From IMG/VR virus record IMGVR_UViG_3300042508_000428: DNA of 64,000 bases; one strand, written 5' to 3'. The position numbers and the translations under genes were made by a program. Source of the DNA: a virus. This document shows, piece by piece, positions 7,282 to 64,000 of the stretch. The notes under the pieces were generated by a model. That model worked only from the letters and a program-made list of their open reading frames with translations, was not told where the DNA came from and searched no databases. Numbering within the stretch: the first letter of the stretch is position 1; every line of letters starts with the position of its first letter.

Positions 7282-7325
7282 TTGACTAATTGGGGTTGGT
7301 AGGGTAAAATCTACCAACCCTTTTT
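7282..7325 (+). promoter_or_regulatory. Sigma70-type promoter inside a terminator-like hairpin, upstream of recA
   Basis: TTGACT 7282, N17, TAAAAT 7305. Stem gggttggtag (7293-7302)/ctaccaaccc (7311-7320) followed by a T-tract. Confidence 0.7.
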
Positions 7326-7338
7326 ATTTGGAGACAAA

Positions 7339-8499: not shown

Positions 8500-8549
8500 T
8501 TGACAAGAAGCCCAAGGTTGGACTATAATGGTTCCACCTTGGGTTTTTT
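8500..8549 (+). promoter_or_regulatory. Sigma70-type promoter inside a terminator-like hairpin
   Basis: TTGACA 8500, N18, TATAAT 8524 in the loop of cccaaggttgg/ccaccttggg, followed by T6. Confidence 0.7.
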
Positions 8550-8562
8550 ATTAGGAGTTGAC

Positions 8563-47021: not shown

Positions 47022-47059
47022 TTGACACGCAAGCTCACTTCGCCTACAATGGTGGAGTG
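47022..47059 (+). promoter_or_regulatory. Sigma70-type promoter of tRNA-Ser, with the -10 forming a hairpin loop
   Basis: TTGACA 47022, N17, TACAAT 47045. Hairpin cacttcgcc-TACAAT-ggtggagtg. Confidence 0.7.
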
Positions 47060-47063
47060 TCGA

Positions 47064-47154
47064 GGGGAGATGGTCGAGTGGTTTATGGCAATCGCTTGGA
47101 AAGCGATCGAACGTGAATAGCGTTCCGGGGGTTCGAATCCCCCTCTTCCCGCCA
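47064..47154 (+). tRNA. tRNA-Ser(GGA)
   Basis: Acceptor GGGGAGA/TCTTCCC, anticodon loop TTGGAAA, long variable arm, TTCGAAT T-loop, CCA encoded. Confidence 0.95.
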
Positions 47155-49977: not shown

Positions 49978-50012
49978 TTGACAAGCGAACGGAGACACGC
50001 TATACTGTCTCC
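49978..50012 (+). promoter_or_regulatory. Sigma70-type promoter of tRNA-Ile
   Basis: TTGACA 49978, N17, TATACT 50001. Hairpin ggagaca/tgtctcc spans the -10. Confidence 0.7.
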
Positions 50013-50018
50013 AACAAC

Positions 50019-50096
50019 GCGCCTGTGGCACGACTGGTTAATGGCATTCGTCTTATAAGCGATGGTATGTTGGTTCAAATCCAACCGGGCGCACCA
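50019..50096 (+). tRNA. tRNA-Ile(TAT)
   Basis: GCGCCTG/CGGGCGC acceptor, loop CTTATAA, T-arm GTTGG-TTCAAAT-CCAAC, CCA encoded. The anticodon stem is imperfect. Confidence 0.8.
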
Positions 50097-52555: not shown

Positions 52556-52918
52556 ATGGCAACTAGATCTTATATCGGAAAAGTTAATCAAGATCAAACT
52601 ATCAGCGCTATTTATTGTCATTGGGATGGTTATCCTTCTCACAATGGAAAAATCCTTCTTCAGAATTATGAAACAGATGATAAAGTTGATTCGTTGCTTT
52701 CGAAAGGAGATCTCTCTGTTTTAGGAGAAACAATAGATACTTGCTCATTCTATCAAGATGGATCTATCGGAGAATACAGCAATATTGATTTGTTTTTTGA
52801 TAGAGGCAAGAATTGTTGGATAGAATATTATTACCTATACGACAATGGATATTGGAAATGTTTTGATTATGATTGTGAACCAATCTCTATCGTAGAGGCA
52901 ATTAAAGAGGCAGGTTGA
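52556..52918 (+). CDS. Conserved phage hypothetical protein
   Basis: MATRSYIG...IYCHWDGYP pattern. Confidence 0.65.
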   Translation: MATRSYIGKVNQDQTISAIYCHWDGYPSHNGKILLQNYETDDKVDSLLSKGDLSVLGETIDTCSFYQDGSIGEYSNIDLFFDRGKNCWIEYYYLYDNGYWKCFDYDCEPISIVEAIKEAG

Positions 52919-52946
52919 CAGGAACCTCCAGCTAGTGTAGACTAGC
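52915..52946 (+). promoter_or_regulatory. Sigma70-type promoter of tRNA-Leu
   Basis: TTGACA 52915, N17, TAGACT 52938. Confidence 0.7.
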
Positions 52947-52951
52947 ATCAT

Positions 52952-53035
52952 GCTCTTGTGGCGGAACAGGTAGACGCAGCAGACTTAAAATCTGCCAACT
53001 ATTTAGTTATGTGAGTTCGAGTCTCACCGGGAGCA
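52952..53035 (+). tRNA. tRNA-Leu(TAA)
   Basis: GCTCTTG/CGGGAGC, loop CTTAAAA, long variable arm, CCA not encoded. Confidence 0.92.
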
Positions 53036-53052
53036 CTAAAAAGAGGTGAGTT

Positions 53053-55082: not shown

Positions 55083-55135
55083 TTGACACAAAAACCCTCC
55101 TCTGCTATAGTTAGGTATATAGAGAGGAGGGTTTT
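55083..55135 (+). promoter_or_regulatory. Sigma70-type promoter with SD-sequestering hairpin
   Basis: TTGACA 55083, N17, TATAGT 55106. aaaaccctcctct (55091-103) pairs with agaggagggtttt (55123-135). Confidence 0.72.
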
Positions 55136-55608: not shown

Positions 55609-55967
55609 GGGTCTGAAATGGTATCGATCGGGTAGAGTTTTATGATTATGCAGGACGATGGGGAGCGAGGCATCGTAAAAACGCTTAAATGTTTAATTGC
55701 CAACGACAACGTTGCTTTTGATTACGCCGTAGCGGCTTAAATCACGGAGTCTCCAAACACTCTGTAAAATAAGTTTGGATAGGTTGGAATCTTATCGAAA
55801 ACAAGATTCATCGGCTTTTCTAACTGGTTTTGCCCTGAATAAATCAGTATGAAGTCCCTGTAACCCAGGTGTTTTGTCAAGGGTAGGTTGGGTGCTTGAC
55901 TATTCCTGTGAATGAGTAATCATAAAAACTATGTGAGACGCGGGTTCGACTCCCGCCAGATCCACCA
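55609..55967 (+). ncRNA. ssrA: tmRNA, tag reading frame (A)ANDNVAFDYAVAA* at 55699-55740
   Basis: Acceptor GGGTCTG/CAGATCC with G3:U70, 3' T-arm GCGGG-TTCGACT-CCCGC and ACCA end, 359 nt, ANDN...AA tag. Confidence 0.95.
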
Positions 55968-63004: not shown

Positions 63005-63161
63005 ATAGTTCTATTTATTTGATTGTTGAATACTTTATTACTTAATAATCATTCTCGATAAAGTAGGCATTTAACTTCCTCAGCATATTCCGCTGAAAGC
63101 ATATGTGACACTGAAAAAAAAGATCTTTATGCCTCACTTTGTATATGAGGGACTGAAAGCC

Positions 63162-63820
63162 AAACGGCAGACTGAGAGGTCTTGACGCCAGCAAACAGAT
63201 CGGGTAAGATACCTAAGTCAAAGCGAGAGACCTGCGCGGTTTCTCGAAACGGCAAACGGCAAACCGGGGAACGCGAGACTGCGAGGTCTTGACAACCGTT
63301 CCAAGTTGTGGTAAGCTACTAAGGTCAACGCGGGAAACGGGCTTCGCGCTCTGAAACCGCAAACGCTCCTTGAAAACCGAGTAGATTCGCAAACGTGATA
63401 CTGCGAGGGCTTGACAACCGAATCTGGTTGTGGTAGACTACTAAACGCGGAATGGTTCCGCAAGGAGGCGAAATGTCGATTACGAATGACGCACTGAAGG
63501 GTATTGTTCTTGGTCTGACGATTGCCAAATTGGTTATTCTGCTGAACGGCTAACTGAACCGAAACGTGAGACCGCGAGGTATTGACAGCGGTTCCGAGTT
63601 GTGGTAAGATCCTGACTGTGACGGCGACCTGAGCGGTTGCCGAGATTAAGAAACGCGGTACTGAGAAACGCGATACTGCGAGGGCTTGACAACGGTTCGA
63701 AGTTGTGGTAAACTCCTGAATGTGAGCGAGCCTGAGCGGTTCGCGAAACGACGGAGAGAAGCAGAAATCGGAAACGTGATACTGCAAGCTCTTGACAAGC
63801 GAATCTACTTGGTGTACAAT
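63162..63820 (+). promoter_or_regulatory. Tandem array of six sigma70-type promoter units with a conserved upstream motif
   Basis: -35 at 63182, 63289, 63411, 63582, 63686 and 63792, each followed after N17 by TAAGAT, TAAGCT, TAGACT, TAAGAT, TAAACT, TACAAT. Confidence 0.85.
63473..63553 (+). CDS. 26-aa hydrophobic peptide MSITNDALKGIVLGLTIAKLVILLNG
   Basis: AAGGAGG SD just upstream of ATG, directly downstream of the third array promoter. Confidence 0.6.
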   Translation: MSITNDALKGIVLGLTIAKLVILLNG

Positions 63821-63863
63821 CCCTAAGTCGGCGGTGAGCTTCGCGTTCACCCACTCCGCATCG

Positions 63864-63882
63864 GATCTTTGATAACTGAATA
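63864..63882 (+). promoter_or_regulatory. rrn-boxA-like antitermination element
   Basis: GATCTTTGATAACTGAATA preceded by hairpin ggtgagc/gttcacc, downstream of the last array promoter. Confidence 0.5.
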
Positions 63883-64000
63883 ACGATTGCGAGCACAGAG
63901 TTGCTCTGCAAAGATGATGGACTGCCGTGGTCTGCGAAGTCACGAGACCTTCCACATCGCAATCAAGACGACACGCAATAAGTGCGTGACGTAGAGTGAG

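Follow-up and report, generated by a model that had tools for sequence, protein, structure and literature searches.

In Escherichia coli, the two promoters of the ribosomal RNA (rrn) operons, P1 and P2, lie about 120 base pairs (bp) apart (PMC4696680), and in the rrn transcripts of Bacillus subtilis a small 5′ hairpin immediately precedes boxA (PMC13753749), a sequence published as UGCUCUUUAACA for E. coli and AUGAUCUUUGAAA for B. subtilis (PMC13753749; also PMC2724277, PMC5725501). Tandem promoters found elsewhere in phages serve very high expression (PMC10134795). Phage T7 carries three E. coli promoters, 128 and 124 nucleotides (nt) apart, ahead of its first early gene. Here we describe a comparable locus in a 64,000-nt stretch of viral DNA from the IMG/VR virus record IMGVR_UViG_3300042508_000428. 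The whole of this stretch is referred to as the window; its positions 63162–63820 hold six predicted sigma70-type promoters in tandem. We consider it fairly probable that they form a stack of promoters organized like an rRNA operon and followed by a leader for Nus-type antitermination, and that this stack drives an island of tRNA genes.

The likeness to a bacterial rRNA operon takes in the promoters and the RNA that follows them. The strong sigma70-type promoters of the array are mostly spaced by about 105–120 nt, close to the 120 bp between P1 and P2 (PMC4696680), and a hairpin and then a boxA come within about 50 nt of the last start of the array (PMC13753749). Next in the phage come a structured leader and stable RNA genes, and the phage boxA is of a class identical to one adjoining bacterial 16S and 23S genes. 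The differences are that the phages have six or seven promoters rather than two, that the upstream element is GC-rich where the operon has an AT-rich UP element with Fis sites, that no recognizable boxC was seen in the phage leader and that the cargo consists of tRNAs and small phage proteins in place of rRNA. Like the T7 promoters A1–A3, the array sets several strong host-polymerase promoters in tandem, in the same direction and in one unit; unlike them, three promoters at the leading end of the T7 genome before an anti-restriction gene, it lies inside a contig at least 164 kilobases (kb) long and leads into tRNAs. T7 is not known to have a boxA, a repeated 5′ hairpin or a common GC-rich upstream box. 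As at the nut sites of phage lambda, the phage transcript has a boxA-type element and a pentaloop hairpin close to its promoter, with a phage protein gene next. However, the array has the order hairpin–boxA, as in rrn, whereas lambda has boxA–boxB (PMC2724277), its loop is YNNGC rather than of the GAAAA type, and the protein encoded downstream is a winged-helix protein of 271 amino acids (aa), not a small arginine-rich peptide such as lambda N. With its hairpin ahead of boxA and an adjacent protein that is not N-like, the locus does not match an N/nut system, although no search aimed at an N-like peptide was made.

The six units of the array are as follows.

63164–63210, + strand: unit 1, with a degenerate upstream box (63164–63179) and the promoter TTGACG-N17-TAAGAT (63182–63210).
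63271–63317, + strand: unit 2, with an upstream box (63271–63286) and TTGACA-N17-TAAGCT with an extended −10 TGn (63289–63317).
63393–63439, + strand: unit 3, with an upstream box (63393–63408) and TTGACA-N17-TAGACT with TGn (63411–63439).
63564–63610, + strand: unit 4, with an upstream box (63564–63579) and TTGACA-N17-TAAGAT with TGn (63582–63610).
About 63653–63667: partial second copy of the box of unit 5.
63668–63714, + strand: unit 5, with an upstream box (63668–63683) and TTGACA-N17-TAAACT with TGn (63686–63714).
63774–63820, + strand: unit 6, with an upstream box carrying two mismatches (63774–63789) and TTGACA-N17-TACAAT (63792–63820), which matches the consensus at 11 of 12 positions.

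The −35 boxes begin at 63182, 63289, 63411, 63582, 63686 and 63792, with gaps of 107, 122, 171, 104 and 106 nt, and all six units have a spacer of 17 nt and a −10 box of the form TAnnnT. The −35 box is TTGACA in five of the six and TTGACG in unit 1, the most divergent unit, whose upstream motif has three mismatches. Units 2–5 share GTTGTGG, which gives them an extended −10 (TGn), and units 4 and 5 have the tract CCTGA-TGTGA...CCTGAGCGGTT in common. These features, including the four copies of TTGTGG and the divergence of unit 1, had been listed in the first-pass annotation, made from the letters alone, and all are present in the sequence. Six TTGACA-N17-TAnnnT units with a common GC-rich 16–20-mer are well above chance. 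The phage leans heavily on promoters of the host type: in the window as a whole, TTGACA-N17-TAnnnT is matched perfectly 28 times, always on the + strand, where 1.2 matches would be expected. Terminator-like sites are absent from 63100–64000, and hence from the stretches between units. We conclude that the six units are predicted tandem sigma70-type promoters, close to consensus.

To place the array among its relatives, loci were obtained for twelve lineages, and four clades were compared; homologues of the 271-aa protein are 41–90% identical. In every locus with enough upstream sequence, three to seven tandem consensus promoters stand at the same place, 91–192 nt apart, even where the flanking gene is as little as 41–75% identical, while the two loci without promoters are contigs cut inside the leader. 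Counterparts of unit 1 are present as the first units of four relatives (L008, L009, L010 and L015). The number of units varies, being six in the window and seven in three close relatives, and a unit with a peptide gene is kept in L010 while L008 and L009 lack it altogether, so units have been gained and lost. Over 52 distinct units from the four clades, the −35 box, the 17-nt length of the spacer and, in the −10 box, positions 1, 2 and 6 hardly vary while positions 3–5 are free, which is the pattern expected of working sigma70 promoters. The comparison argues that the array is kept by selection in related phages.

Each promoter is preceded by a box with the motif ACGYGAKACYGCGAGG and the conserved core GAKACTGCGRGG. 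At up to three mismatches the motif occurs six times, against 0.55 expected, and its matches in the window and the next 10 kb downstream are confined to the six units, in agreement with the earlier claim that no other promoter in the window has it. The box differs from clade to clade among the relatives, with AAAGCTGAATAAAATCAGCTA-type dyads in clade B, GAATCGAATGATTC...TAGTTCG in clade C and AAGCCAATAAAAWCAGCT in clade D. In the window's clade, the 20 nt upstream of the −35 box are conserved and 56% G+C, and the AT-rich tract from −40 to −60 of a normal UP element is absent, as had been stated from the sequence at the outset. Clades B and D have more AT-rich upstream versions, such as CTGAATAAAATCAG, that could be UP-like. 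Apart from the core promoter, no part of the unit is as well conserved within the window's clade as the box, which has a mean pairwise identity of 0.79, compared to 0.27 farther upstream and 0.40 after the −10 box. Several units have a partial duplicate of it. The box also accompanies unit 1, ahead of which the array has no promoter, and this argues for a DNA-level role. The GC-rich 20-mer is under constraint within the clade, and its readers are most likely the alpha subunits of RNA polymerase or another factor. It had been described as a CGY-N6-GCG pseudo-palindrome, but CGY-N6-GCG does not persist as a pairing or dyad across units and relatives. Two further interpretations of the box were rejected. 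Read as an RNA hairpin, it gives predicted pairings that change between units, with CGY/GCG not kept; as a Fis or CRP site, its spacing and half-sites are a misfit when judged by eye against consensus sequences.

A second element of the units lies in the RNA. In all clades, and in nearly every transcript, a hairpin of 7–9 pairs begins 5–8 nt past the predicted start site; five of the six units in the window have one.

63224–63246, + strand: hairpin of unit 1, a 9 bp stem with the pentaloop UGCGC.
63330–63360, + strand: hairpin of unit 2, a two-tier stem with the pentaloop UUCGC.
63622–63642, + strand: hairpin of unit 4, an 8 bp stem with the pentaloop UGAGC.
63726–63744, + strand: hairpin of unit 5, a 7 bp stem with the pentaloop UGAGC.
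63833–63851, + strand: hairpin of unit 6, a 7 bp stem with the pentaloop UUCGC, in the boxB position of an rrn leader, before boxA.

The loop variants are UGAGC, UGCGC, UUCGC, UAAGC and CAAGC, closed by a C-G or U-G pair, and the general pattern is YNNGC followed by GG(U)U, with an outer stem in which the extreme 5′ end of the transcript is often paired. The pairs include G-U, and the hairpins have no U-tract. The pairing was evaluated over 39 of 44 distinct units, the five without a hairpin (the unit with the peptide ORF, three clade C first units and a clade D last unit) being excluded. Across these 39 units, 80% of cells are paired compared to 57% in shuffles, and there are 83 double-change cells compared to 26 in shuffles; slid controls are 25–43% paired. 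The stems therefore covary. The spacers from the hairpin to the next box vary in length and sequence.

The hairpin of the last unit is followed directly by a boxA-like site and a structured leader.

63864–63876, + strand: boxA-like GATCTTTGATAAC and then TGAATAACG, 44 nt past the last −10 box.
63365–63377, + strand: weaker boxA-like copy GCTCCTTGAAAAC, 46–48 nt past the −10 box of unit 2.
63885–63964, + strand: structured leader domain, with the closing helix GATTGC/GCAATC and two internal hairpins.

The boxA of the window reads GATCTTTGATAAC(TGAA) at 63864 and is close to the B. subtilis consensus AUGAUCUUUGAAA (PMC13753749). Boxes in the versions GCTCTTTGAAAAT, GGTCTTTGATAAC, GATCTTTGACAAT or GCTCTATGACAAC are found in the relatives. 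In nine loci, which together represent three of the four clades, the last-unit site lies 43–44 nt past the final −10 box; in L021, a truncated locus, it lies at +36. In all of these loci it comes directly after the 5′ hairpin. The weaker copy is kept in the orthologous units of the same four relatives that share unit 1 (L008, L009, L010 and L015). At up to two mismatches, the window contains two boxA matches, both inside the array and on the + strand. The leader domain shows compensatory changes in 14 of 22 predicted pairs across the four clades, with a conserved CTGCAA tract and a three-way junction after boxA. A search of Rfam matched only tRNAs and the transfer-messenger RNA (tmRNA), with no match for the array or the leader.

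The bacterial context of this boxA was examined by scanning one genome per prokaryote species for GVTCTTTGAYAACTGAA, a 17-mer class, with linkage to rRNA judged by internal 16S and 23S markers. Among the matches listed, 23 of the 83 testable ones are correctly oriented and placed either ahead of 16S or in the spacer that precedes 23S, and a further 37 are within 1.5 kb of a contig end. rRNA operons often sit near contig ends. With a 16S 5′-end marker alone, four of 120 listed matches were linked; there were no masked N runs. An example is the rrn leader of Mesorhizobium, with GATCTTTGACAACTGAATA about 200 nt before 16S.

Downstream of the last promoter come a leader of about 190 nt, the gene for tRNA-Arg(UCU), the gene for the 271-aa protein and six more tRNAs within 4 kb. 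All of these belong to a GC-rich island of about 6.5 kb, which also holds phage-type small open reading frames (ORFs) and extends to about position 17000 of L001, the 164-kb contig in which the array is internal, with same-strand genes on both sides (L001 coordinates are window coordinates minus 52649). AT-rich phage genes, including a lysozyme, resume past the island. No strong + strand promoter was found for 3.8 kb after the array, and no + strand terminator before L001 15446. The same arrangement of tRNA-Arg and the further tRNAs is seen in relatives.

Taken as a stack built like an rRNA operon, the locus would work as follows. Host sigma70 RNA polymerase would initiate at the six promoters, all of which would fire rightward into one transcription unit; spaced by at least 104 nt, they could be occupied simultaneously, so that initiation frequency would be multiplied and output would be additive. 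The stable hairpin at the start of each transcript would likely protect the 5′ end or play a boxB-like role. Every transcript would cross the final boxA, where host NusB/S10 and other Nus factors would be loaded, and the polymerase would then be Rho-resistant over a long, largely untranslated, tRNA-rich RNA.

A number of observations weigh against this explanation. The boxA matches in the window are no more frequent than chance predicts (two versus 1.45 expected at up to two mismatches, and 23 versus 23 expected at up to three), so the case for boxA is one of position, strand, conservation and bacterial rRNA context. In the clade D locus L012 the boxA is only degenerate, beyond the limit of three mismatches, and the boxA of the window is two positions off the gammaproteobacterial consensus GYTCTTTAANA (PMC5725501). 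A recognizable boxC was not seen in the aligned leaders. In the prokaryote scan, 60 of the 83 testable matches listed had no nearby rRNA marker; about 400 chance matches are expected in the genome collection, so that unlinked matches are unsurprising. The model also leaves the GC-rich upstream box unexplained, as rrn P1 uses an AT-rich UP element. Finally, elsewhere in the phage single tRNAs have single promoters (at 47022, 49978 and 52915), so a stack is not required for tRNA expression as such.

We also investigated how widespread such arrays are. When viral contigs were scanned for a pattern of three consensus promoters 94–124 nt apart, at least 116 contigs matched, against about 0.01 expected by our own estimate. 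Among the matches listed, arrays of three units number 68, those of four units 35 and those of five units 12, with none larger. In this set tRNAs lie within 700 nt of the array in 14 of 116 cases (about 12%), and a boxA-like site occurs within 150 nt past the last promoter in 10 of the 115 other arrays, compared to none in a reverse-complement control. A common upstream 20 nt is frequent among the 47 listed arrays of at least four units and is AT-rich, with a mean G+C of 0.36; the array of the window is an outlier, with a G+C of 0.56 and the highest identity among the listed arrays other than perfect repeats. Judged from these patterns, phages commonly use tandem stacks, and a stack combined with a boxA is found again in independent lineages. 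Since stacks of three to five promoters are common, some of them with a boxA, the array of the window appears to be a larger, GC-boxed variant; it combines promoter stacking of the rrn and T7 kinds with a larger unit count than in the other listed arrays, a repeated covarying 5′ hairpin, an rrn-type boxA leader before tRNAs and a GC-rich box. Three unrelated IMG/VR contigs (L172, L213 and L220) have three to four tandem consensus promoters with AT-rich common upstream tracts and a GTTCTTTGAAAA-type boxA after the last unit only, and in L172 the array consists of four perfect 101-nt repeats.

The gene for the 271-aa protein (L001 11478–12293) is the first protein gene downstream of the array, just past the end of the window. 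The protein combines a predicted N-terminal winged-helix domain with a disordered linker, the invariant motif FGxGRPSK, a long helix and a tail of acidic character, and residues 1–110 were modelled with a predicted local distance difference test (pLDDT) score above 90. All of its top fold matches are MarR/PadR/ArsR regulators, and these are weak (E-value about 0.01); sequence searches of Pfam, PHROGs and the PDB gave no significant match. Its putative recognition helix (residues 53–69) is near-identical in clades with unrelated upstream boxes. Because the box differs between clades and the recognition helix hardly does, the protein is a poor candidate for a reader of the box, and on this comparison it seems unlikely to be one. 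An internal methionine (residue 138) is invariant and preceded by AAGGTG, and may mark a second in-frame start.

The first-pass annotation had offered two explanations of its own: an early battery, or sponge, that captures RNA polymerase, and an array of promoter-plus-small-RNA cassettes under a shared regulator. Of the former, the sigma70-type tandem battery itself appears to be real and kept by selection; that it seizes the polymerase, with an inferred early timing of expression and with the GC-rich box as the operator at which a shared regulator, a phage or host protein, would switch all six together, is a rival reading, which overlaps with the rRNA-operon one and which we regard as possible but rather unlikely. 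It would account for the near-consensus promoters, four of them with an extended −10, and it recalls the three spaced E. coli promoters before the first early gene of T7. An operator would also suit a box that is better conserved than anything else in the unit except the core promoter, accompanies even unit 1, has partial second copies in several units and changes as a block from clade to clade, as a co-evolving protein–site pair would, with a winged-helix protein of MarR/PadR/ArsR-like fold encoded first downstream. However, the array lies inside the 164-kb contig between same-strand genes, which does not support a position at a genome end, and boxA, the leader and the tRNAs play no part in the model. 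The adjacent protein, with its nearly constant recognition helix, is a poor reader, and no other candidate regulator was identified. Moreover, other phage arrays also have a common upstream 20 nt (AT-rich and UP-like), so some upstream conservation is ordinary. The small-RNA explanation, in which each promoter and pentaloop hairpin would yield a discrete, abundant decoy or regulatory RNA, we hold to be improbable. The hairpin is indeed the most deeply conserved element apart from the promoters, with covarying stems, a YNNGC loop followed by GG(U)U and an outer stem that often pairs the transcript's very 5′ end. With no intrinsic terminators or U-tracts between units, though, no unit has a defined 3′ end; the spacers from hairpin to box are variable, there is no Rfam match and one unit has a peptide ORF under purifying selection in place of the standard hairpin. 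Instead, all units read into one boxA-bearing leader and then tRNA-Arg, and the cassette proposal is not borne out.

Two explanations would leave transcription aside. The direct 20-mer repeats are non-coding, stand at a sharp change in base composition and adjoin a gene with a DNA-binding fold, as might be expected of a replication origin (with iterons or primed by transcription) or of a partition or packaging site at which the likeness to promoters is incidental. This seems very improbable: the spacing is irregular (91–192 nt) and out of helical phase, conservation across clades extends to the promoter hexamers, the length of the spacer and covariation of the RNA type, G-U pairs included, but not to the 20-mer, GC skew does not switch here and there is no adjacent replication-initiator or partition gene. 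The change in composition, from about 33% to 52% G+C at about 63150, could also be taken, along with the rrn-like elements, as a sign of an assembly chimera or of captured host DNA such as an rrn promoter region. We give this next to no credence. A chimeric join had been named as something that would undo the initial interpretation, but the 1-kb junction and the array are identical in seven contigs from different samples and sources, so the join is real; diverged relatives repeat the gene order and the composition step, and the island holds phage-type small ORFs and tRNAs, with AT-rich phage genes resuming after it. The protein encoded just upstream of the array is found on 20 contigs.

Since the hairpin and the putative recognition helix are both conserved in all four clades, we also propose, as a doubtful conjecture, that the pentaloop hairpin is the recognition site of the adjacent winged-helix protein. 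Together with host boxA/Nus, the pair could form a phage-specific system for elongation, antitermination or RNA protection, analogous to lambda N with boxB but with another protein fold, and the clade-specific GC-rich box could be a separate operator for the whole stack.

Two open frames overlap the array.

63473–63553, + strand: peptide ORF of 26 aa, hydrophobic, MSITNDALKGIVLGLTIAKLVILLNG, with the ribosome-binding site AAGGAGG at 63462–63468.
63218–63955, − strand: open frame of 245 aa, called as a gene in some assemblies.

The peptide ORF accounts for the longer gap of 171 nt between units 3 and 4 and is the sole credible ORF in the inter-promoter stretches, which are otherwise non-coding, as had been described. 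Its copy in L010, a relative 75% identical in the flanking gene, has four nucleotide changes and no amino-acid changes, a pattern that suggests purifying selection. The 245-aa frame was rejected as a gene and is attributed to composition: the + strand is 57–62% purine and stops are scarce in all three opposite frames. Moreover, the frame is broken in four relatives, unit indels are not multiples of three and there is no family match.

The window belongs to a large phage that is uncultivated. Its genes are all on the + strand and include a DnaE-type polymerase, a DnaB helicase, a ribonucleotide reductase and a GroEL-type chaperonin, along with eight tRNAs and one tmRNA. There is no close cultured phage, the nearest cultured-phage DnaE being less than 30% identical, and neither a nucleotide search of the array against GenBank phages nor an exact-motif scan of IMG/VR gave a match. 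The phage-encoded tmRNA is in one piece (55609–55967), with the tag ANDNVAFDYAVAA, the ending of which is similar to tags from Alphaproteobacteria; this tag and the boxA type point weakly to an alphaproteobacterial host.

Several further features of the phage were observed. In the AT-rich part, at 47022–47154, 49978–50096 and 52915–53036, a consensus promoter ends about 10–15 nt before the 5′ end of a mature tRNA. The GC-rich island has two promoters that match the consensus at 12 of 12 positions, at L001 16647–16675 (− strand), near its right end, and at L001 14950–14978 (+ strand), about 100 nt before tRNA-Thr. It also has tRNA-like genes with abnormal anticodon loops (L001 12507–12581, L010 2764–2838 and L012 3961–4036), for which ARAGORN gives a 4-base ‘aata’ or 2-base ‘tg’ anticodon and which are kept in relatives. 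A Bsp6I-like restriction endonuclease gene (L001 13961–14551) is present or absent between otherwise near-identical contigs (compared with L002, L004 and L008). At 7282–7330, 8500–8550 and 55083–55130, a hairpin with a T-run after it encloses the spacer and −10 box of a single promoter, as in AAGCCCAAGGTTGGACTATAATGGTTCCACCTTGGGTTTTTT at about 8507; here, an intrinsic terminator seems to overlap the next promoter.

How large phages express their tRNA clusters, fast and at a high level, has rarely been described, and this locus suggests a simple answer, in which the design of the host rRNA operon is copied and multiplied, with six or seven promoters and a Nus-recruiting boxA. The spurious call of a 241-aa gene on the opposite strand of the array illustrates that gene callers mistake promoter stacks for genes. 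Such stacks would be compact natural promoter modules of very high predicted strength, and the GC-rich box and the pentaloop hairpin are two short, defined elements that can be tested directly. More broadly, the combination of stack and boxA may be a general and largely unannotated way in which phages make use of host antitermination, beyond the N and Q of lambdoid phages.

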